This document shows, in pieces, positions 54 to 42,780 of a stretch of DNA of 64,000 nt (its first letter is position 1; each line of letters opens with the position of its first letter). A model generated the notes under the pieces. That model was given only the letters and a program-made list of their open reading frames with translations, did not search any database and was not told the origin of the DNA. The stretch lies in IMG/VR virus record IMGVR_UViG_3300031853_000013, positions 1 to 64,000 of that record. One strand, 5' to 3'. Both the position numbers and the translations under genes were made by a program. The stretch comes from a virus (taxonomy: Duplodnaviria; Caudoviricetes).

Positions 54-133
54 AATATAGGCCCTCCTTAAAATATAAAAATTTATTTATAACTGCTCAA
101 TTAGAACAGTTATTGATAGAAAAAAAAGAAAGA

Positions 134-206
134 ATAGTATAGACGGAATTGAACCGCCAATCTTCCGCGGGTAAGCGGACGTGTTCACCATTAACACCTT
201 ATACTA
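134..206 (-). ncRNA. tRNA-like RNA 1 (cloverleaf with aberrant anticodon loop, no CCA)
   Basis: 7-bp acceptor TAGTATA/TATACTA, D arm GTGT-TAATGGTGA-ACAC, arm TCCGC-TTACCC-GCGGA (6-nt loop), T arm GGCGG-TTCAATT-CCGTC; lies between motif 214-238 and a U-tract. Confidence 0.8.
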
Positions 207-213
207 CCCTATC

Positions 214-11340: not shown

Positions 11341-11517
11341 AGAAATGATTGGTAGGATTCAACTCACCTACAATTTATTGTTTTAGGTCGTGTCCTTTTA
11401 TGTCTTAGATCCATTTCTAGATCACGGTGAACGCCTTTGCATTAGTCTCCTAGAGCGCCGCTACAGCGACTAACCATATCATTTCTGACTTAGGTTTCTA
11501 GGTCTTCAATCATTTCT
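11341..11517 (-). ncRNA. 177-nt structured ncRNA with tRNA-like 3' end
   Basis: 11-bp terminal stem AGAAATGATTG/CAATCATTTCT starting directly after element 6; GTAGG-TGAGTTGAAT-CCTAC arm stacked on it; GNRA hairpin GATCTA-GAAA-TGGATC; followed by U-tract; no RBS-led ORF. Confidence 0.65.
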
Positions 11518-11542
11518 ATTAAGGGGGTTGCAAAAGTTGCGA
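11518..11542 (-). promoter_or_regulatory. TCGCA element 6
   Basis: TCGCA ACTTTTG CA ACCCC CTTAAT. Confidence 0.8.
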
Positions 11543-18557: not shown

Positions 18558-19199
18558 TTACTTCACAAAATCGCATGCCTTAATTTTAACAACAAGTCGA
18601 TTACCGAGACGATCGAACAAATCGTTTTCCGGTTTAGCTACAACACCTTCCATAGGAGCATTTCCAATTGTACTCATGGGTCTAGCTTTGACGTATTCCA
18701 CTGCTTCTGGTAAAGTCATCCTTCCAAGAATAGGAACTACTTCCACACCAAAGCATGTGCCGATATCTTCTATGGACTCGCGCTTAAGCCATACATCGCC
18801 GGCCATGACATCGAACATAATAAAAGCGACATCATCTGGCCGATATAGAGAACCATTCTTCTGGATCTTTTTTCCATATCCCTCGCCGTATAATGTAACA
18901 GAACAGCTTCCAAATTTCTGCTCGAATAATTCTTCGGCCTCCAAGGTACAAAATGTCGAGTTCAAATAGTTAACCAAGTCAGACGGAATCTGAGCGCGAT
19001 CAGTTCTGCCGGCAAGTTCTACTCTATGTCCGTCCCAGCAAACACGAATATTGGTTCCATCGATTTTTTCAGTAATGACCCATGGGATATTCCGCAACAT
19101 TTCTACCGTCTCGTTACGATAATATCCCTCAATAAGCTTTTTAGTTCCCTTAACGTCTCGATTAAAGATCGCTTCAATTTTATGATATTCTCTGATCAT
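18558..19199 (-). CDS. Rnl2-family RNA ligase (nucleotidyltransferase domain)
   Basis: Motif I EKIDGTN, LYGEGYG, FIMFDV, EGVVAKP, KIK. Confidence 0.85.
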   Translation of the reverse strand: MIREYHKIEAIFNRDVKGTKKLIEGYYRNETVEMLRNIPWVITEKIDGTNIRVCWDGHRVELAGRTDRAQIPSDLVNYLNSTFCTLEAEELFEQKFGSCSVTLYGEGYGKKIQKNGSLYRPDDVAFIMFDVMAGDVWLKRESIEDIGTCFGVEVVPILGRMTLPEAVEYVKARPMSTIGNAPMEGVVAKPENDLFDRLGNRLVVKIKACDFVK

Positions 19200-21689: not shown

Positions 21690-22814
21690 TTACTTATTCT
21701 GTCTTGCCCAGGAGTCATTATCGAGTGCTACATATTCAGGATCGCCGGCGTTAGCAATCGCCTCTTCACACTGATCATAAACCTCGTCCAGCTCCTCAGG
21801 ACTCAGATCGTTCTTACCTTTAATGCCCCACTTGATCTTGTCCACAATCACGCCGTCAACGTTGAAATCAAGCACGAGTTTTCTACGAAGATAACCATTG
21901 TTTCGTTCGATAATGTTTCTGAATCTCGGATCGGTGTAGCAGAGATCAATGCCGAAATCGATATACCCGTCGCCATCCGGATTATCCTTGATCCAGCCGA
22001 CAATCTGACCCTCGGGAGTAGGCGTAAGACCGAGCATTGTATAAACGTCATTCAGGAATACGTAGCCGATTCTATTGAGCTTTTCATTAGCGGCTTCCTG
22101 CTGTGCCTGCAGATAAGAAGTGTTCCAGTAGTTGTTGCTGTCATTATTCTGATAGCAAGCAGCATGCTCCTTATCATAGATTCTCGCATACGGGGAGCCC
22201 AATGGGTAGTCAATTTCCTCGGTAGTCTCGAGCACAGTTTCTTCGAGTCCGGTTTCGGGATTAACCTTCTTAACTTCCTTGGTTACTTCCTTAGTGCCAT
22301 ACAGATACTTAGCGTCAAGTTCCTTACCGCCATCCTTGATTACTCTCTGGCGATATACCTTGAACGCACTATCGATAGCCGTATAAGCAGTCAGAAGAGC
22401 TGCATTACGATCTCTCAGGATCTTGTGGCTGAACAGAATAAGCGCGATACCAGTTACGATAAATCCCACGGCCGGTGCGTATTCCTTAGCAACCTTGAGT
22501 CCAGTTCTGATAGCAGTACCAGCAGTCTGACCGTATACAGTCATCTTGTCCTGCTGTGCATCCTGTGCATCATAACCCTTGAGAGTCTCATTATCTACAG
22601 CCTCATCGATTTCTTCGAACTTATCCTTTGCATACTCAACTGCCTCATCTACTTCCTTCTTAAGATCGGCCTTCATAGCATCAACCTTGAGGGTAGCTTT
22701 GCAGGCAAAGAAGATGCCAGCGCCTACAGACAGAATACCAGCACCAATAAGAATCTCCGGTGCAGCTTCCTTGACATTGTCCTTGACTTTAGTCATAAAC
22801 GCATTAAAATTCAT
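21690..22814 (-). CDS. DUF6353-like phage protein
   Basis: APEILIGAGI...YAPA...RNAALLTAY...GYVFLNDVY...VGW; paralog at 36034-36897. Confidence 0.7.
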   Translation of the reverse strand: MNFNAFMTKVKDNVKEAAPEILIGAGILSVGAGIFFACKATLKVDAMKADLKKEVDEAVEYAKDKFEEIDEAVDNETLKGYDAQDAQQDKMTVYGQTAGTAIRTGLKVAKEYAPAVGFIVTGIALILFSHKILRDRNAALLTAYTAIDSAFKVYRQRVIKDGGKELDAKYLYGTKEVTKEVKKVNPETGLEETVLETTEEIDYPLGSPYARIYDKEHAACYQNNDSNNYWNTSYLQAQQEAANEKLNRIGYVFLNDVYTMLGLTPTPEGQIVGWIKDNPDGDGYIDFGIDLCYTDPRFRNIIERNNGYLRRKLVLDFNVDGVIVDKIKWGIKGKNDLSPEELDEVYDQCEEAIANAGDPEYVALDNDSWARQNK

Positions 22815-27503: not shown

Positions 27504-28202
27504 TCATGCATAAGCAATATTCTTTGCTTTGTGCTTCCAGTTGTAAGCGCACTGAGTCGTTACTCCAAACATCTCTACCATCTTAGCATTGCCGAGCTTA
27601 TCATACATGTTCAGAAACGTAATAGCCTCCTGCTTGTTTCTAAACAGCGATTCACGTGTCTTAGCTTTACGATTCTGCAGTCTATATATGAGCTTAGCTT
27701 CGGCATCTTCAGGAATCACTTTAGGCTCGACTTTACATGAGCTGGCACTCTTCTCGACGATCTCATTGTCGTTGTTGGTGATTTCTTTCTTTTCCATAGT
27801 CTCTCCTTTAACTTCTTCCGCCGTGTCATTACTGACGAAGCCAAAATATCTTTTTGTTTCCTGCATAATAACCTCGATAGATTCAGGCGAGAACGTATAA
27901 TAATACTTCGCAAAGAACTTAACATCCTTGGTCTGAATCTGACTGAGAATGATACGGGAAGTAATATCTCCTTTAACAAACACGATATCATGATCAGTGT
28001 ACTCAGACTTATTAGCATTTGTTGTAAGCGGTGCACAAGTGATATGTCCACCGTAATGCTTAATAATTACGTACGGTCTGGTTCCATTGATTACCGTGGA
28101 GCCTTGATTTCTCAGTGCACTAGTAATTTCCTGCGGCTCCTCAACCAGCCATACCTGACCAGTAGCGAATGTAGATGTCCCAAGCTTCTTTTCAATACTC
28201 AT
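27504..28202 (-). CDS. PemK/MazF-like domain protein with C-terminal HTH-like segment
   Basis: GQVWLV...GTRPYVII...CAPLTT...IILSQIQT. Confidence 0.6.
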   Translation of the reverse strand: MSIEKKLGTSTFATGQVWLVEEPQEITSALRNQGSTVINGTRPYVIIKHYGGHITCAPLTTNANKSEYTDHDIVFVKGDITSRIILSQIQTKDVKFFAKYYYTFSPESIEVIMQETKRYFGFVSNDTAEEVKGETMEKKEITNNDNEIVEKSASSCKVEPKVIPEDAEAKLIYRLQNRKAKTRESLFRNKQEAITFLNMYDKLGNAKMVEMFGVTTQCAYNWKHKAKNIAYA

Positions 28203-31320: not shown

Positions 31321-32112
31321 TTACTCCTTGACCAAATCGTGAGGTGGCACGTTTGTGATGAACCAAGTATCTCCAAGCTTGTCGTTATCATAAGCCATAT
31401 TGTAAGGTGCAATATCGTCAACACTATCCCATCCGTAGTTGTCAGAAACCTTAAAATACTTGCTTCCGTTACCATGGATCATATGGTATACATCGTTCAC
31501 GGTCAAACATCTTTTAGTTTCAAACGTCTTAATAGCTTCTCCGGCAATATGATAGGCGAGTGAACGCGATGGAATCTCAAGATACTGGCTGAAAGCTGTC
31601 GGTAAGATTCGATCATTATCGCTTCGGAACTGTCTGAGATCTCTGGCTAACGGCAGACCCTCGATGTAATACTTATCTTCATCTGTTCGCACAACCAAAT
31701 TACAAATATCCATGTAATTATACCCGTAGTCAATCATACGATACGGAATGTTCGACATGATTGTTCCATCTTGATCATACTCGATAGCGTCGGACAGAAT
31801 GTCATAAATATCAAGCTCGGTTACTACTCCAGAATCTTCAGCGACTTCAGTGATACGCTGCTGTACATACTTGGCCATCAGATACGAATTGAAATGAACG
31901 TCTGACAGGATAGATACCACCTTGATTTTACTGGTGTCGACCTCGGCAACGTTGCTAACATACTCTACGTCAGACGGTTTTGGTTCAGACTTAAACACGT
32001 TCTTAACCGATTCCTTGACATCGGTGATCTTCGATTTATCAACGTATTTGTCATATACGTGATAAGCGGCTACACCAAGGCCCAGTACTGCCAGTCCAAT
32101 AAGTTTACTCAT
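31321..32112 (-). CDS. Membrane-anchored protein with two copies of a repeated phage domain
   Basis: GVVTELDIYD...YGY and CLTVNDVYH...NYGW. Confidence 0.65.
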   Translation of the reverse strand: MSKLIGLAVLGLGVAAYHVYDKYVDKSKITDVKESVKNVFKSEPKPSDVEYVSNVAEVDTSKIKVVSILSDVHFNSYLMAKYVQQRITEVAEDSGVVTELDIYDILSDAIEYDQDGTIMSNIPYRMIDYGYNYMDICNLVVRTDEDKYYIEGLPLARDLRQFRSDNDRILPTAFSQYLEIPSRSLAYHIAGEAIKTFETKRCLTVNDVYHMIHGNGSKYFKVSDNYGWDSVDDIAPYNMAYDNDKLGDTWFITNVPPHDLVKE

Positions 32113-32737
32113 AATTATTCTCCTTTAAATCAATATATTTCTGAACATCGAGGTTATAAAGTTTCAGAGCCTCGATTAATTCATCTAAGCATTTCGGTCC
32201 GAAACACCTAATTTCCATGAGATGTTTGGGATCAGTCTCGTAAAGCTGCTTTAAATCCTCAATACCATCGCGAGTTAAGCAATGATACAGTCGAACAGAT
32301 AGATTCATTTCTTTGACCGAAGGATTCTCAAATGCACTTTGCTTATGCTCAATGCAATCGTGGTAGCCGTTCAAGTAGCCCTCCCGATAAGCTACATTCG
32401 CACGTTCTCCGGACCTTACTTCAAAGAACATCATAGGCCCTTTAAATACAATAGCACTATTACTAGGTCGTCTAAAAAATCTAGCCACATGTGATAAAAT
32501 CTGCTGTACTCTAGCACTGCTGCGGTCGATTGCATCACCAACTTCTTTCTGGGTTTTGTTATCGCGGTAGTAAAGATTAATTACATCTTGACTACGGTCG
32601 TCCATCGTTGACATGACGTAATAAAACCCTGCCAAAGTGTTGACGCTCGTGTGTTCTTCAGCCTCCTTTTCAGTCCAAGCATACACAACCGACAAGAAAT
32701 TATACGGATAAGGATAATCCGGTTTCTTAGTTCTCAT
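32105..32737 (-). CDS. Sigma-70 region 4 HTH fused to RNA polymerase alpha C-terminal domain
   Basis: MDDRSQDVINLYYRDNKTQKEVGDAIDRSSARVQQILSHVARFFR (sigma4); SVKEMNLSVRLYHCLTRDGI...LMEIRCFGPKCLDELIEAL (alphaCTD). Confidence 0.85.
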   Translation of the reverse strand: MRTKKPDYPYPYNFLSVVYAWTEKEAEEHTSVNTLAGFYYVMSTMDDRSQDVINLYYRDNKTQKEVGDAIDRSSARVQQILSHVARFFRRPSNSAIVFKGPMMFFEVRSGERANVAYREGYLNGYHDCIEHKQSAFENPSVKEMNLSVRLYHCLTRDGIEDLKQLYETDPKHLMEIRCFGPKCLDELIEALKLYNLDVQKYIDLKENNYE

Positions 32738-33193: not shown

Positions 33194-33328
33194 TTATTTG
33201 CGAATTATAAGAGACGCGATCTGTACGCAGCCATTTACCACACAGCTAACCATAAGCAGGGCAATGATCGGATGGTCATCAACGAATCTGTACAGCTTAT
33301 CATCGGTCTTTTCCGGAATAGTGGTCAT
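33194..33328 (-). CDS. 44-aa TM peptide (not in ORF track)
   Basis: AAGGAGG RBS; MTTIPEKTDDKLYRFVDDHPIIALLMVSCVVNGCVQIASLIIRK. Confidence 0.6.
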   Translation of the reverse strand: MTTIPEKTDDKLYRFVDDHPIIALLMVSCVVNGCVQIASLIIRK

Positions 33329-33363
33329 AGTTATTTCCTCCTTTGAAAATATAAAAAGAAAAA

Positions 33364-33479
33364 ATGGAAACACAGCTTTGCGGTCTTCGAACCCGCGTCT
33401 CCTTCACAACATAGTCGTAAAGGCGCATTACCTTTATGCTATTTTGTTACCCGTAATCTCGGGTCGCTGTGTCTCCATC
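33364..33479 (-). ncRNA. tRNA-like RNA 2 (D arm, extended anticodon-less arm, T arm, extra hairpin)
   Basis: 13-bp terminal stem ATGGAGACACAGC/GCTGTGTTTCCAT; TA-GCAT-AAAGGTA-ATGC; CCTTTACGAC-TAT-GTTGTGAAGG; GCGGGTTCGAAGACCGC; U-tract follows. Confidence 0.75.
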
Positions 33480-33951
33480 ATTATAGGACTTGCATAGTTT
33501 GCGAATCACTATTTGTACGGACAGCTCTTCAAGCTCAGCTACTCTACGTGCTTGTTCGATATTATAGTGCCCCACGATATCATAGACAGTCGTTTCGTTG
33601 ACCGCCTTTAACATAGAGTCGTTAAGATTCTCCGCGACATCTCGAATATCATTCGAATTCAGTATCTTCATCGTCGCTATCATGCTCCTCTCGGGTTAGA
33701 TCCCATCTATCAGAGTAGTCAGTAACTCGGTCCAGATAATAGTCAACGGGAATGTAGTCATCACCATACTCATTAGCATCTTCAGCATTCCATCGCAAGC
33801 ACAACGACACATCATCGGGGTCGATGTCCTCTTCGTGACAGAATGTGTCAAATAATGCTACGGCTTCGTCAACGGTTTTAGCACAGAATTCGGTCTCATC
33901 TTGTTTATCATCATCTATCCATTCGAAGTGATAGGTTTTAATGAATGCCAT
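33447..33951 (-). CDS. Two hypothetical genes (33447-33683; 33649-33951 acidic)
   Basis: RBSs; the first runs into element 17 and the ncRNA 5' end. Confidence 0.55.
33480..33504 (-). promoter_or_regulatory. TCGCA element 17
   Basis: TCGCA AACTATG CA AGTCC TATAAT. Confidence 0.8.
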
Positions 33952-33956
33952 TTTGA

Positions 33957-34487
33957 TTACGCCTCCGTTAAGTATTCTGGTGCTGGTAGTGTTAGCGTAC
34001 AGAAATGGTTCGGTATGAATGTTTCCATTATAGAGCTATCATACGAGCCGTCTTCATCGATTAGGCATGACAAGTCAGTCCACCCGATTAAATGAGTGTC
34101 ATCAGTGTCGTCAAACCTTATGGGTTTTCCAACTATAGTAGAACAAACATGGAATGCTTGATTTACGGTCACATGATTGGCACATCTAATGATCGTTCTA
34201 AGTTTGTCAATAAATTCTATTGTCTGATCTCGATTTCCAAAATAAAAAATCATTTTGTTTAACTCAGATTTATTTTCGCTCGGCTCATTTTTGTAAGCAT
34301 CTGAAACGTCACATTCATATATGATAATAAACCCTTGCTTATTGTGTACGTTGTCGACTGTTGTCTCAATGACATTCTTTATAGAATATCCACAATCATT
34401 GATGGAATCTATACGGTCTCGTAATTCACTTCCAACCTCACGAGATGATACAATTTGCTGAACCAATTCAGTTCTCATAGTTTTCAT
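33957..34487 (-). CDS. Hypothetical with repeated phage domain
   Basis: HVTVNQAF...IGWTDL...LTLPAP. Confidence 0.65.
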   Translation of the reverse strand: MKTMRTELVQQIVSSREVGSELRDRIDSINDCGYSIKNVIETTVDNVHNKQGFIIIYECDVSDAYKNEPSENKSELNKMIFYFGNRDQTIEFIDKLRTIIRCANHVTVNQAFHVCSTIVGKPIRFDDTDDTHLIGWTDLSCLIDEDGSYDSSIMETFIPNHFCTLTLPAPEYLTEA

Positions 34488-35350: not shown

Positions 35351-36019
35351 TTAATCGACTCTCTGTACATCAGGGAAATTGATCTGCCATCCGCCTGCTA
35401 CGTGGATGATACCGACATTGGTGAGGTCTCTCCAACCCCAATTGTTGTCAGTAAACCTTGACTGTGGCGCACCCTCATCGAACAGATCATAGAAGTCAGC
35501 CACACTTACGTATCCGTACTCCTCGACGTAATCGATAAGATATTGAAGAATGTTCTCGGCGTCTCTACGATTTGAGATTCTTACATTCTCGAATCTCCGT
35601 CCTACCTTGGAATAATCCGTGCGAGAGCCATTACTGCCTCTTACGACGATACCGCCGCTACTGCTTCCGGGTCTTGATAAGCTTCCATAGTCTCGCTTGT
35701 TGTTGCCGTAGCTCGATGCTTTACCAGGCCTTGACTCGCCATACAGAAATCCATCAATAGCCGCCTTGGATGCATTGGCAATACCATCGATGATCGTAGG
35801 CATTACGATATCTACGAATACATAATGCGTTACATCGCCAAAGTTTCTGCCCTGAAAGAACGTGTCCTTGACTTTTGTGAAGATGCTAGGCTTTGATACC
35901 TTCGTTCCTTCACTAAGTGTTGGCTTTGGAATAATCTTATGATCAGAGGAAACAGCCGTAGCCGCTTCCTCCTTTTTAGTCTGAGAGTTAGATCTTACAT
36001 CAAGTCCGTCGAGTTTCAT
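35351..36019 (-). CDS. Phage protein with repeated domain
   Basis: EYGYVSVADFYDL...DNNWGWRDL...WQINFP. Confidence 0.75.
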   Translation of the reverse strand: MKLDGLDVRSNSQTKKEEAATAVSSDHKIIPKPTLSEGTKVSKPSIFTKVKDTFFQGRNFGDVTHYVFVDIVMPTIIDGIANASKAAIDGFLYGESRPGKASSYGNNKRDYGSLSRPGSSSGGIVVRGSNGSRTDYSKVGRRFENVRISNRRDAENILQYLIDYVEEYGYVSVADFYDLFDEGAPQSRFTDNNWGWRDLTNVGIIHVAGGWQINFPDVQRVD

Positions 36020-36033
36020 ATTTAGTTCCTCCT

Positions 36034-36897
36034 TTAATTAATAGTATAGTTGTTACTTTCATAGCAGCATCTCGGCTTTGTATCAAGTATGATCTCAAGA
36101 CACGGGATCTCAGTATCAGGAATCTTCGCAGCCGAGAAGTGATACTTAATAAGTTCGCCATTTGCTTCCCAGTAGAAGATGTTACCAACGTCTGTTTCAC
36201 TAACACCTCTACCATGATTTGCGATATTAACTGCCACGGTATTAAAGTCGTACAGCAAATCGTTGAGCATTACCTCTTGGCAGTTATTAATAGCGTGATT
36301 AGCTCGGATGAAGCACTCCTTGACATCTTCAATTCTAGCACTAAAGATCTGTCCTGTCATTGGCGCCATAAATATCGTGTAACTGGTATTGTCTGAAGCA
36401 AAGCGCTTAACTTCATCATCTACCGGAGTGTTCTCAAGCTTCTTTCTTGTTACGGCAGCTTCGATCTCACCAGCCTTCTTCTCTCCGAACTTCTCAATAG
36501 TTTTCTTCTGATACTCCTTTAATGACATATCGGCAATCGTGTACGCTGCTGAAAGAGCTGTCTGACGCTTGTCGCTGATGTAGTCCGAGCCGATAACTGC
36601 TGCACTTGAGAGAATAAAAGATACAGCTGTCGGCCAGTATGCGGGCGTCACTGCCTTGAATGTCTCGAATGGTGTAAGCTTAATGCTACTACGTTCTTCC
36701 TGTGGAATACCTTCTTCGTCGGCCTTTAGTGCCTTAGCCTCATCGATCAGAAGATCAGCCTTAGGCTTAGCATTTACTGCAAATATCACAGTAGTGAAGA
36801 ATCCTGCAATACCTGCTGCCGTAAGAAGTTTTGGGGAGTGCTTAACCAGCGTCTTCACTCCACCATGTGTGATCTCAGTGATCTTCGTTGTGTCCAT
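36034..36897 (-). CDS. DUF6353-like phage protein
   Basis: HSPKLLTAAGIAG...AYWPT...RQTALSAAY. Confidence 0.7.
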   Translation of the reverse strand: MDTTKITEITHGGVKTLVKHSPKLLTAAGIAGFFTTVIFAVNAKPKADLLIDEAKALKADEEGIPQEERSSIKLTPFETFKAVTPAYWPTAVSFILSSAAVIGSDYISDKRQTALSAAYTIADMSLKEYQKKTIEKFGEKKAGEIEAAVTRKKLENTPVDDEVKRFASDNTSYTIFMAPMTGQIFSARIEDVKECFIRANHAINNCQEVMLNDLLYDFNTVAVNIANHGRGVSETDVGNIFYWEANGELIKYHFSAAKIPDTEIPCLEIILDTKPRCCYESNNYTIN

Positions 36898-36932: not shown

Positions 36933-37018
36933 GAGATGATAATGCCCCTGGGAATCGAACCCAGTCTATATAGCCATCTACTATATCGCGTCCCGTCCGC
37001 GAATCATTATCATCACTC
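36933..37018 (-). ncRNA. tRNA-like RNA 3 (10-bp acceptor-like stem, non-canonical anticodon loop)
   Basis: GATGATAATG/CATTATCATC; CGCG-GACGGGA-CGCG; TATAG-TAGATGG-CTATA; CTGGG-TTCGATT-CCCAG; no CCA. Confidence 0.8.
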
Positions 37019-37019
37019 C

Positions 37020-37044
37020 ATTATGGAAGTTGCTTAGTTTGCGA
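37020..37044 (-). promoter_or_regulatory. TCGCA element 18
   Basis: TCGCA AACTAAG CA ACTTC CATAAT. Confidence 0.8.
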
Positions 37045-42365: not shown

Positions 42366-42740
42366 TTACTTGTCCGTCTTAAAGAAGTCGCGAACATCAG
42401 TGACCCTGTTCTTGAACCACTTCGGTACGACCTGATCTTGGTCATATACCATCATCAGGAACGTCGACCCGAGTCCAGCTAAAATAGTGGATCCGCCAGC
42501 AATTACAGCATTAGGATCAACTTTCTTCCGCTGGGGTACAGTCTGTGCTACATTTGCACGCTGTTCCGCCAAAACAGTAAGATTGTCAATCGCCCTGCTA
42601 TATTCGCAAGACTGACTCCCTTTCTCAGCCAGAATCTTCGCAGCGTCCTGCTGGGCAACCGCGATCTGTTCGTCCAGTACTTCAAGTACCGTCTTGGGTT
42701 TCTGTGTTTTAGTCTTCTTTTTGAACATTTTCTTGTTCAT
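42366..42740 (-). CDS. Cassette protein with C-terminal hydrophobic segment
   Basis: AGGAGG 1 nt after element 29. Confidence 0.7.
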   Translation of the reverse strand: MNKKMFKKKTKTQKPKTVLEVLDEQIAVAQQDAAKILAEKGSQSCEYSRAIDNLTVLAEQRANVAQTVPQRKKVDPNAVIAGGSTILAGLGSTFLMMVYDQDQVVPKWFKNRVTDVRDFFKTDK

Positions 42741-42755
42741 ATAAAACACCTCCTC

Positions 42756-42780
42756 ATTATAGTCCCTGTCCCGTTTGCGA
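42756..42780 (-). promoter_or_regulatory. TCGCA element 29
   Basis: TCGCA AACGGGA CA GGGAC TATAAT. Confidence 0.8.

Follow-up and report, generated by a model that had tools for sequence, protein, structure and literature searches.

Mimicry of transfer RNA (tRNA) is known from Y RNAs, transfer-messenger RNA (tmRNA) and viral 3' ends, and the elbow or the T arm of tRNA is reused outside decoding in the tRNA-like domain of tmRNA, in mascRNA and in the 3' structures of plant RNA viruses. The tRNA genes of phages are currently explained either by codon supplementation or by the replacement of tRNAs that host defences have cleaved. Here, we analyze RNA2, a tRNA-like RNA of 116 nt that is encoded at positions 33364 to 33479 of a 64,000-nt window of viral DNA (Duplodnaviria; Caudoviricetes), namely, the first 64 kb of the 91,112-bp IMG/VR virus record IMGVR_UViG_3300031853_000013, which is rated complete and whose habitat is the cattle gut. 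RNA2 appears to be a previously undescribed architectural variant of tRNA mimicry, with comparative support that is solid but thin: selection seems to have stripped both working ends of a tRNA while keeping its body, and the signals that surround this body belong to an unusual phage polymerase. That RNA2 is a real, selected, tRNA-derived small RNA and, jointly, that it acts in trans as a decoy or sponge of tRNA-body shape for a factor that recognizes such shapes, is an interpretation that we advance tentatively, with a probability of about 0.45.

Among the Y RNAs, which are also known in phages, YrlA carries its arms in the order T arm, closed acceptor-like stem, D arm, and adjoins the rsr gene; the terminal stem of YrlA-type RNAs bears, in its 5' strand, the Ro60-binding motif GNCGAAN0-1G; and Yrn1 of Deinococcus mounts a D arm, a further arm with a 6-nt 'anticodon' loop and a T arm on its terminal stem (Chen et al. 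2014, PMC4201824). All genes of the window lie on the minus strand, and RNA2 shares this orientation (33479 to 33364). Its minimum free energy (MFE) is -49.7 kcal/mol, compared with -24.3 +/- 2.9 in 200 dinucleotide shuffles (z = -8.66; 0 of the 200 as good). The plus strand of the same site folds to -42.9 with a different inner structure, and several G-U pairs found in both RNA2 and its diverged homolog, L004, would become A-C mismatches on the opposite strand. A 99-aa open reading frame (ORF) on the plus strand, 33198-33497, was rejected, since the genes of this genome run on the other strand and the frame is conserved neither in L004 nor where relatives carry insertions.

The fold comprises five helices, namely, a closing stem, the ACCCG/CGGGU hairpin, the D arm, a 10-bp arm and the T arm, and the tRNA-like part follows the order D arm, closed arm, 4-nt variable region, T arm. 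Through the extra hairpin and the A-rich strands, the junction is five-way, in contrast to the four-way junction of tRNA. The original prediction had described the D arm, the T loop, the 10-bp arm with its 3-nt loop, the 13-bp stem and the ACCCG/CGGGT hairpin from the letters of this stretch, and all of these are present at 33364-33479 on the minus strand; the strand itself, the promoter at the 5' end, the terminator-like U-run and the cassette context are additions of the present analysis. The parts are the following.

33480..33504, minus strand: phage-specific promoter TCGCAAACTATGCAAGTCCTATAAT (TCGCA-N7-CA-N5-YWTWAT), directly 5' of RNA2, with the hexamer TATAAT
33364..33479, minus strand: RNA2, with a putative 5' end at G33479 or A33478
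33466..33479, minus strand: closing stem, 5' strand GAUGGAGACACAGC, paired with 33363/33364-33376
33449..33464, minus strand: extra hairpin ACCCG-AGAUUA-CGGGU; the stem is the same in L004, the loop has one change
33440..33448, minus strand: A-rich junction AACAAAAUA, the last two bases of which correspond to tRNA U8 and A9; the L004 version, AACAAACUA, has one change
33424..33439, minus strand: D arm GCAU-AAAGGUA-AUGC plus G26, with A14, G18, G19 and A21 at tRNA positions
33401..33423, minus strand: closed 10-bp arm CCUUUACGAC/GUUGUGAAGG with the loop UAU, in place of the anticodon arm; L004 has 9 bp and the loop UAA
33397..33400, minus strand: AGAC, the equivalent of the variable region, identical in L004
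33380..33396, minus strand: T arm GCGG(G)-UUCGAAG-(A)CCGC, with a stem compensation of C-G to U-A relative to L004
33377..33379, minus strand: AAA linker from the T arm to the closing stem, identical in L004 and absent from tRNA
33364..33376, minus strand: closing stem, 3' strand GCUGUGUUUCCAU, supported by the fold and by the alignment with L004
33353..33363, minus strand: U-run UUUUUCUUUUU, a terminator-like tail

The closing stem is of 13 bp, or of 14 bp if the pair G33479-U33363 is counted, and a single G separates it from the extra hairpin. The D arm with the preceding UA (UA-GCAU-AAAGGUA-AUGC-G) occupies 33441-33424, and the sequence GGTTCGAA, at 33393-33386, occurs only once in the window.

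The case for a folded and selected RNA is carried by L004, a 1,613-nt metagenome contig that was recovered by a pattern scan of metagenome contigs; the scan pattern fixed most of the D arm and the T loop, so that the identity of these parts in L004 is by construction. The segment L004:203-303, on the minus strand, scores 112.4 bits with a covariance model (CM) built on the RNA2/L004 pair, and RNA2, the sole copy in the 91-kb genome, scores 139.5 bits with CM R1. From 5' to 3', L004 presents TATAAT-GG, UAGAGGA, G, ACCCG-AGUUUA-CGGGU, AACAAACUA, the D arm as in RNA2 and G; then, CCUUCGUGC-UAA-GCGCGAGGG, AGAC, GUGG-GUUCGAAGA-CCAC and AAA; and finally, UCCUCUA, UUUUUCUUUUUU and UUUAUAUUUU-AAAGGAGG-ATG. 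Folded alone, it adopts the five helices of RNA2 (z = -4.43), and in the structural alignment of the two sequences, 97% of the cells are paired, as against 36-53% when the partners are slid by 1-3 columns. The raw number of pairs changed on both sides is 12, with eight in the closing stem, three in the long arm and one in the T stem. Once the outer six closing-stem 'pairs' of L004 (which include bases of the promoter and the U-run), one pair that closes the loop of the long arm and the parts fixed by the pattern are discounted, there remain about six double changes in the closing stem, all within the 7 inner pairs that can be trusted in L004, as well as two in the long arm, one in the T stem and four single G-U changes. 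All cells of the long arm are paired across the two sequences, with two to three double and four single compensatory changes.

Sequence conservation between RNA2 and L004 is, then, inverse to the conservation of pairing. The closing stems are unrelated in sequence and differ in length, 13-14 bp in RNA2 vs 7-9 bp in L004 (UAGAGGA/UCCUCUA), and the elements that are identical although they lay outside the search pattern are the stem of the extra hairpin, G26, AGAC and AAA, with the A-rich junction differing by one change. This pattern is the hallmark of a folded RNA whose loops and junctions make up a conserved surface, with the helices as spacers. The explanation that RNA2 is a decaying tRNA pseudogene or an oversized terminator, with functionless tRNA features, draws on its inability to decode, on its location in a fast-evolving accessory region and on the U-run, which suggests termination; it appears highly improbable, however, in the face of compensatory changes in three helices, loops and junctions that are unchanged next to unrelated neighbour genes, the conservation of the extra hairpin and the linkers, and a block that is much better conserved than the flanking genes in cattle-gut relatives (see below). 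The covariation that the original prediction proposed as a check is observed and a conserved homolog exists, contrary to its refuting condition, and the retention of all five helices in L004 by compensatory changes bears out the view that the remodelling is organized and not random decay. An attP or integration site was dropped as an explanation given that selection acts on pairing, including G-U pairs, and an intron-containing or permuted tRNA was dropped as well.

The proteins of L004 have no tblastn match in the phage of RNA2. The DNA common to the two consists of the cassette from the promoter hexamer to the Shine-Dalgarno (SD) sequence (79% over 157 nt) and a second promoter. At the start of the contig (L004:1493-1613, minus strand) lie the 3' part of another T arm, GGGGGUUCGAGUCCCUC, and a U-run, followed by a promoter variant with TCGGA for TCGCA, a closed hairpin of about 45 nt with a U-run and the leader UUUAUAUUUUAAGGAGG.

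At a shorter evolutionary distance, contigs assembled from three cattle-gut runs of different studies, X2, X5 and X10, contain the block 33355/33359-33510/33520 with, among the differences listed, 0, 1 and 3 changes, respectively, and the flanking genes differ by 4-12%. The edges of the block carry insertions: a 356-nt replacement stands directly after the first U-run of RNA2 (33318-33359), and inserts of at least 46 to 130 nt stand directly upstream of the promoter (33520-33526). In one X10 strain, a plain terminator-like sequence takes the place of RNA2 before the same downstream gene. These variants suggest that the RNA2 cassette has been gained, lost or moved among relatives. Because the stretch identical in X2 extends to about 33588, we take the block to be a module that has been either conserved or exchanged, which falls short of proving purifying selection. 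The RNA run X24 yielded contigs at 33861-34011 and 35711-35963 only, and is uninformative on the expression of RNA2.

Compared with tRNA (RF00005), RNA2 has the same helix order, the core and elbow bases, and the D arm of real phage tRNAs; indeed, two genuine phage tRNAs (L002 and L003) have precisely this 17-nt D arm. The tRNA bases that are kept are U8, A14, G18, G19, A21, G26, A44, U54, U55, C56 and A58, among which the elbow set, G18, G19, U54, U55, C56 and A58, can be read from the sequence at the expected positions. In one of the two genuine tRNAs (L002:6650-6725, plus strand), the anticodon loop is CCCUAAA, that is, by eye, an anticodon CUA and an amber suppressor. The differences from tRNA concern, above all, the working ends. 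The 7-nt anticodon loop with U33 is missing, its place being taken by a stem of 10 bp, or of 9 bp in L004, that is capped by 3 nt in both, and the ends are paired together, with neither a free acceptor end nor CCA, and are followed by the U-run; that RNA2 is tRNA-derived and yet cannot decode, as had been predicted, is upheld on both counts. In addition, 25 nt, made up of the hairpin and a linker, separate the closing stem from U8, the AAA intervenes between the T stem and the closing stem, and G53-A61 replaces the G53-C61 of tRNA in RNA2 and L004 alike, so that, at its fifth position, the T stem has G-A and not G-C, a detail in which the earlier description needs correction. The tRNA-like domain of tmRNA, mascRNA and the plant-virus 3' structures differ from RNA2 in that their acceptor end is free, processed or chargeable, whereas both ends of RNA2 are closed.

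These features bear directly on the idea that RNA2 is the precursor of a chargeable tRNA-like RNA, which RNase P and RNase Z would trim and which would then acquire CCA and an amino acid for non-ribosomal use. The closing stem of L004, at 7 bp, is like an acceptor stem and is followed by U-rich sequence, and there is a precedent in M. smegmatis, where YrlA is cut by RNase P and CCA is added (PMC4201824). Nonetheless, such a fate seems very improbable: RNase P, RNase Z and the CCA-adding enzyme are unlikely to process RNA2 because it offers no fixed 12-bp stack of acceptor and T stems, the closing stem varying from 7-9 to 13-14 bp and the stack being broken by the AAA and 25-nt spacers; the G53-A61 pair likewise speaks against it, and the ORFs scanned include neither a synthetase nor a CCA-adding gene.

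The likeness of RNA2 to YrlA and Yrn1 is that of a non-decoding RNA that carries D-like and T-like arms atop a stem in which its two ends pair, and the arm order is that of Yrn1, which we take as an analogy only. It differs from YrlA in its order of D arm, closed arm and T arm, which is not permuted, and from Y RNAs in that the 5' strands of the closing stem, GAUGGAGACACAGC in RNA2 and UAGAGGA in L004, are by inspection devoid of GNCGAAN0-1G. The topology shared with Yrn1, together with the existence of phage-encoded Y RNAs and with the 6-nt 'anticodon' loop of Yrn1, which can be compared to that of another RNA of this phage (tRNA0) and to one reading of an RNA of the Rhodococcus phage ReqiPoco6 (both described below), could be taken to indicate that the closing stem binds the Ro60/Rsr ring of the host, with a partner recruited by the tRNA-like module, on the model of Yrn1. 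We consider this tethering role a most improbable one. The closing stem is shared with L004 in neither sequence nor length, and it cannot carry a conserved Ro-binding motif because the homologs share no stem sequence; no Rfam family, Y RNA and YrlA included, matches RNA2 at the gathering threshold or even at E <= 10 on the isolated segment 33200-33650; and no TROVE/Ro gene (PF05731) was detected in the whole 91-kb phage, with the control genomes of Deinococcus and Bacteroides positive. The kinship to YrlA-type Y RNAs raised in the original prediction is, accordingly, given up.

The promoter of RNA2 is one of 31 copies of TCG[CT]A-N7-CA-N5-YWTWAT in the genome, all 31 of them on the minus strand (0 on the plus), which lie at 214-43084 of the window and at 90451-90475 of the genome. 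The hexamer is followed by purine-purine in 31/31 copies and, in several of them, by an SD sequence that begins only 1-3 nt downstream, from which we conclude that transcripts start directly after the hexamer. The geometry of this promoter is not that of sigma-70, and a sigma-70 promoter scan found none on the minus strand near RNA2. The same pattern occurs in ReqiPoco6 (11 forward, 0 reverse) and in oral phage records that carry a PHROG-4291 polymerase (two in Siphovirus contig89 and one in Caudovirus D_HF4_2); its exact TCGCA form is absent from FP_oengus, Mudcat and P1046. The word TGATATT, frequent in FP_oengus, occurs inside genes too. From co-occurrence, we infer that the PHROG-4291 polymerase reads the TCGCA promoters; the protein has relatives, at 38-50% identity, in 250 sequenced phages, whose hosts are Arthrobacter, Gordonia, Streptomyces, Rhodococcus, Lactococcus and Faecalibacterium. 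The record of ReqiPoco6 remarks on the likeness of its polymerase to a structural protein of phage 1706. The features of the transcription unit, and the polymerase, are the following.

84724-87432 of the genome (L006:725-3433), minus strand: single-chain PHROG-4291 polymerase, 902 aa, with a C-terminal helix-turn-helix; database label 'RNA-dependent RNA polymerase'
33326..33352, minus strand: AU-rich 5' untranslated region UAUAUUUU with the SD sequence AAGGAGG and ATG, a module that is standard before most genes here
33194..33328, minus strand: 44-aa ORF, hydrophobic in its C-terminal half, without a promoter of its own
32105-32737, minus strand: fusion of sigma-70 region 4 (PF04545) and the RNA polymerase alpha C-terminal domain (PF03118), 210 aa, identified by domain matches

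The first RNA2 base after the hexamer is already part of the closing stem and pairs with the first U of the U-run. In this respect, RNA2 resembles an intrinsic (Rho-independent) terminator, in which a G+C-containing stem is directly followed by a tract such as UUUUUCUUUUU; it differs in that the 'loop' is an 89-nt tRNA-like domain of four helices, and a simple terminator scan did not call the closing stem. About ten of the promoters are preceded by a hairpin with a U3-6-C-U5-6 tail akin to that of RNA2 (by-eye reading of the 25 nt upstream of each), which looks like an inter-cassette terminator, and the ordinary cassettes have no such extra U-run after their 5' hairpin. There is no TCGCA promoter between 33504 and 28902, so the genes downstream of RNA2, including the sigma4-alphaCTD gene, need read-through.

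This arrangement is the basis for the rival that deserves the most attention, namely, that RNA2 is a cis-acting 5' leader: an elaborate 5'-terminal hairpin that protects the end of the mRNA, with the closing stem and U-run as an attenuator for the downstream genes (the 44-aa ORF, a 99-aa ORF and the sigma4-alphaCTD gene), the attenuation of which a tRNA-binding factor might modulate. RNA2 does sit in the slot in which 17 of the 27 ordinary cassettes open with a hairpin of 4-7 bp at nt 1-3 (13.6% in shuffles); it is followed, like the other cassettes, by the UUUAUAUUUU-AAGGAGG module, which also stands after three further closed RNAs of this phage (RNA1, tRNA0 and a 177-nt noncoding RNA (ncRNA)) and after both L004 cassettes; and the L004 copy, too, precedes an SD sequence and a gene. 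On the other hand, a stabilizer or attenuator needs no invariant D-loop, T-loop or core bases and no conserved extra hairpin, and plain hairpins of 4-7 bp suffice for the ordinary cassettes. Moreover, the downstream genes are wholly different in L004 and in X2, X5 and X10, so that the cassette is not tied to a particular regulated gene. We therefore judge the leader role unlikely as the explanation of RNA2, although far from negligible; it should be noted that a leader in cis and a decoy in trans are not mutually exclusive.

The other closed RNAs bear on this choice as well. Three lie in the phage itself, and one, annotated as 'tRNA-OTHER', in ReqiPoco6.

36933-37019, minus strand, with its promoter at 37020-37044: RNA1, a closed tRNA look-alike with a 10-bp closing stem (z = -3.2)
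132-213, minus strand, with its promoter at 214-238: tRNA0, a near-canonical tRNA, 45.2 bits to RF00005, called 'tRNA-???' by ARAGORN
11341-11517, minus strand, with its promoter at 11518-11542: fourth closed ncRNA, 177 nt, with an 11-bp closing stem from the first base after the hexamer
NC_023694.1 42701-42774, plus strand (L027:1894-1977 corresponds to 42693-42776): 'tRNA-OTHER' of ReqiPoco6, 37.4 bits to the Rfam tRNA model

RNA1 has the D arm CGCG-GACGGGA-CGCG, a canonical T arm, CUGGG-UUCGAUU-CCCAG, a GGG linker and a U-run, and its arm at the anticodon position is of 6-7 bp with a loop that lacks U33 (7 bp and a 5-nt loop in the MFE structure). In tRNA0, which is mostly repeated at the other end of the contig, the anticodon loop, UUACCC, is of 6 nt, the ends are sealed by a 10-bp stem and a U-run follows directly. 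The 177-nt ncRNA, with a U-run and then an SD sequence and a gene, shows no tRNA features, and Rfam gives no match to it at E <= 1. The ReqiPoco6 RNA lies between two identical TCGCAGAAAAAACACGCACTATAAT promoters, has a closing stem of 11 bp (4+7 bp) and a U-run that leads to the next promoter, and its 'anticodon' arm can be closed as 6 bp with a GCAA tetraloop or, in another reading, has a 6-nt loop. Each of the four closed ncRNAs in this genome stands before a promoter-less gene, as a leader would; the mimic of ReqiPoco6, by contrast, stands alone, with the next promoter at once after it, which speaks against a purely cis role.

For convenience, we define here a working class, the 'sealed tRNA mimic' cassette, which consists of a promoter, a closed tRNA-shaped RNA and a U-run. 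RNA2 shows its sequence traits: the promoter at 33504-33480 with the stem starting at 33479/33478, paired ends, a U-run, D and T arms, and a disabled anticodon loop. RNA1, tRNA0 and the ReqiPoco6 RNA are like RNA2 in the TCGCA-type promoter at the start, the ends sealed by 10-12 bp, the U-run, the retained D and T arms and the disabled anticodon loop; they differ in being four-way cloverleaves of unrelated sequence that the RNA2 CM does not match, and tRNA0 and the ReqiPoco6 RNA still score above the Rfam tRNA threshold. Among these mimics, RNA2 alone possesses the extra hairpin, the linkers and the long closed rod, and it is the most remodelled member of a recurring sealed-tRNA design.

How a sealed tRNA body would work can be sketched as follows. 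The PHROG-4291 polymerase of the phage would transcribe RNA2 from the type of promoter associated with it, yielding a discrete, early RNA of about 120 nt, the paired ends of which would shield it from exonucleases; the U-run would end the RNA, with partial read-through supplying the promoter-less genes downstream. A nuclease-resistant tRNA body would thus be on offer early in infection and could occupy a factor that binds tRNA bodies, the candidates being a tRNA-directed host defence or toxin nuclease and a tRNA-processing or tRNA-modifying enzyme. RNA2 is without the parts for entering translation, being neither chargeable nor able to read codons, and the closing stem may be merely a clamp. 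If the body is indeed the working part, a host factor that reads tRNA shape is indicated, and RNA2 would be a compact, naturally stabilized RNA scaffold of about 116 nt; if the sealed-decoy interpretation is true, it would represent a class of RNA-based anti-defence not yet described. In any case, the promoter-RNA-U-run cassette is a short, defined natural template for initiation and termination by the PHROG-4291 polymerase family.

Several observations weigh against a decoy. Nothing ties RNA2 to a defence system; the four closed ncRNAs occupy the slot of the ordinary short 5' hairpin; and three different mimics per genome are not obviously needed for one decoy target. The comparative evidence comes from a single diverged homolog, with covariation resting on two sequences aligned to a model, and the near-identity of the cattle-gut block could reflect a recent exchange of modules. 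Finally, the phage encodes an RNA ligase that is compatible with a conflict over tRNA cleavage and is not linked to RNA2: the gene is missing from five other polymerase-carrying phages, ReqiPoco6 included, so an association of ligase and mimics was rejected and nothing is drawn from it. The broader proposition, that PHROG-4291 phages make a set of doubly closed, exonuclease-resistant tRNA bodies at the start of infection as decoys against a host nuclease or sensor that reads the shape of tRNA and not the anticodon, is more doubtful still than the corresponding role of RNA2.

Beyond L004 and the cattle-gut runs, searches for the cassette came up empty. No relative was recovered when the region was compared by megablast and blastn with 50,697 phage records, in IMG/VR and INPHARED, or in protein-guided searches, including those in IMG/VR and JGI metagenomes with the DUF6353 protein and the sigma4-alphaCTD alignment as guides. 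In IMG/VR, the promoter pattern and the RNA2-specific patterns GAGACGNGGGTTCGAAGACCNCAAA and ACCCGAGNTTACGGGTAACAAA returned none, and a combined pattern of D arm and T loop returned only two genuine tRNAs; a loose pattern gave 27 loci, 0 of which match the CM, and a match on a Rhizobiales contig from the pattern scan of genome contigs was rejected as a chance match without structure. Against six polymerase-carrying phages (FP_oengus, ReqiPoco6, D_HF4_2, contig89, Mudcat and P1046), CM R1 found nothing RNA2-like. The tRNA model RF00005 does not match the L004 copy at E <= 1, and ARAGORN makes no call on RNA2 at default settings, producing a false 'tRNA-Ile' at a relaxed threshold only. The literature consulted, general surveys and work on Y RNAs, holds no account of RNA2 or of phage tRNA mimics with a sealed anticodon.

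Other genes of the phage that might be relevant in this context are listed below. Nine relatives of the sigma4-alphaCTD protein, at 63-92% identity, were found, every one of them in assembled sequencing runs; IMG/VR and the JGI metagenomes yielded none.

18558-19199, minus strand: RNA ligase, 213 aa (PF09414, E = 1.7e-17; PHROG 548)
27504-28202, minus strand: MazF/PemK-like protein, 232 aa, a weak match (Pfam E = 1.4e-4, just below the cut-off; PHROG 1936 E = 3.9e-7)
36034-36897 and 21690-22814, minus strand: two DUF6353 paralogs, the first directly downstream of RNA1

Three DUF6353 genes are also present in the Faecalibacterium phage FP_oengus.

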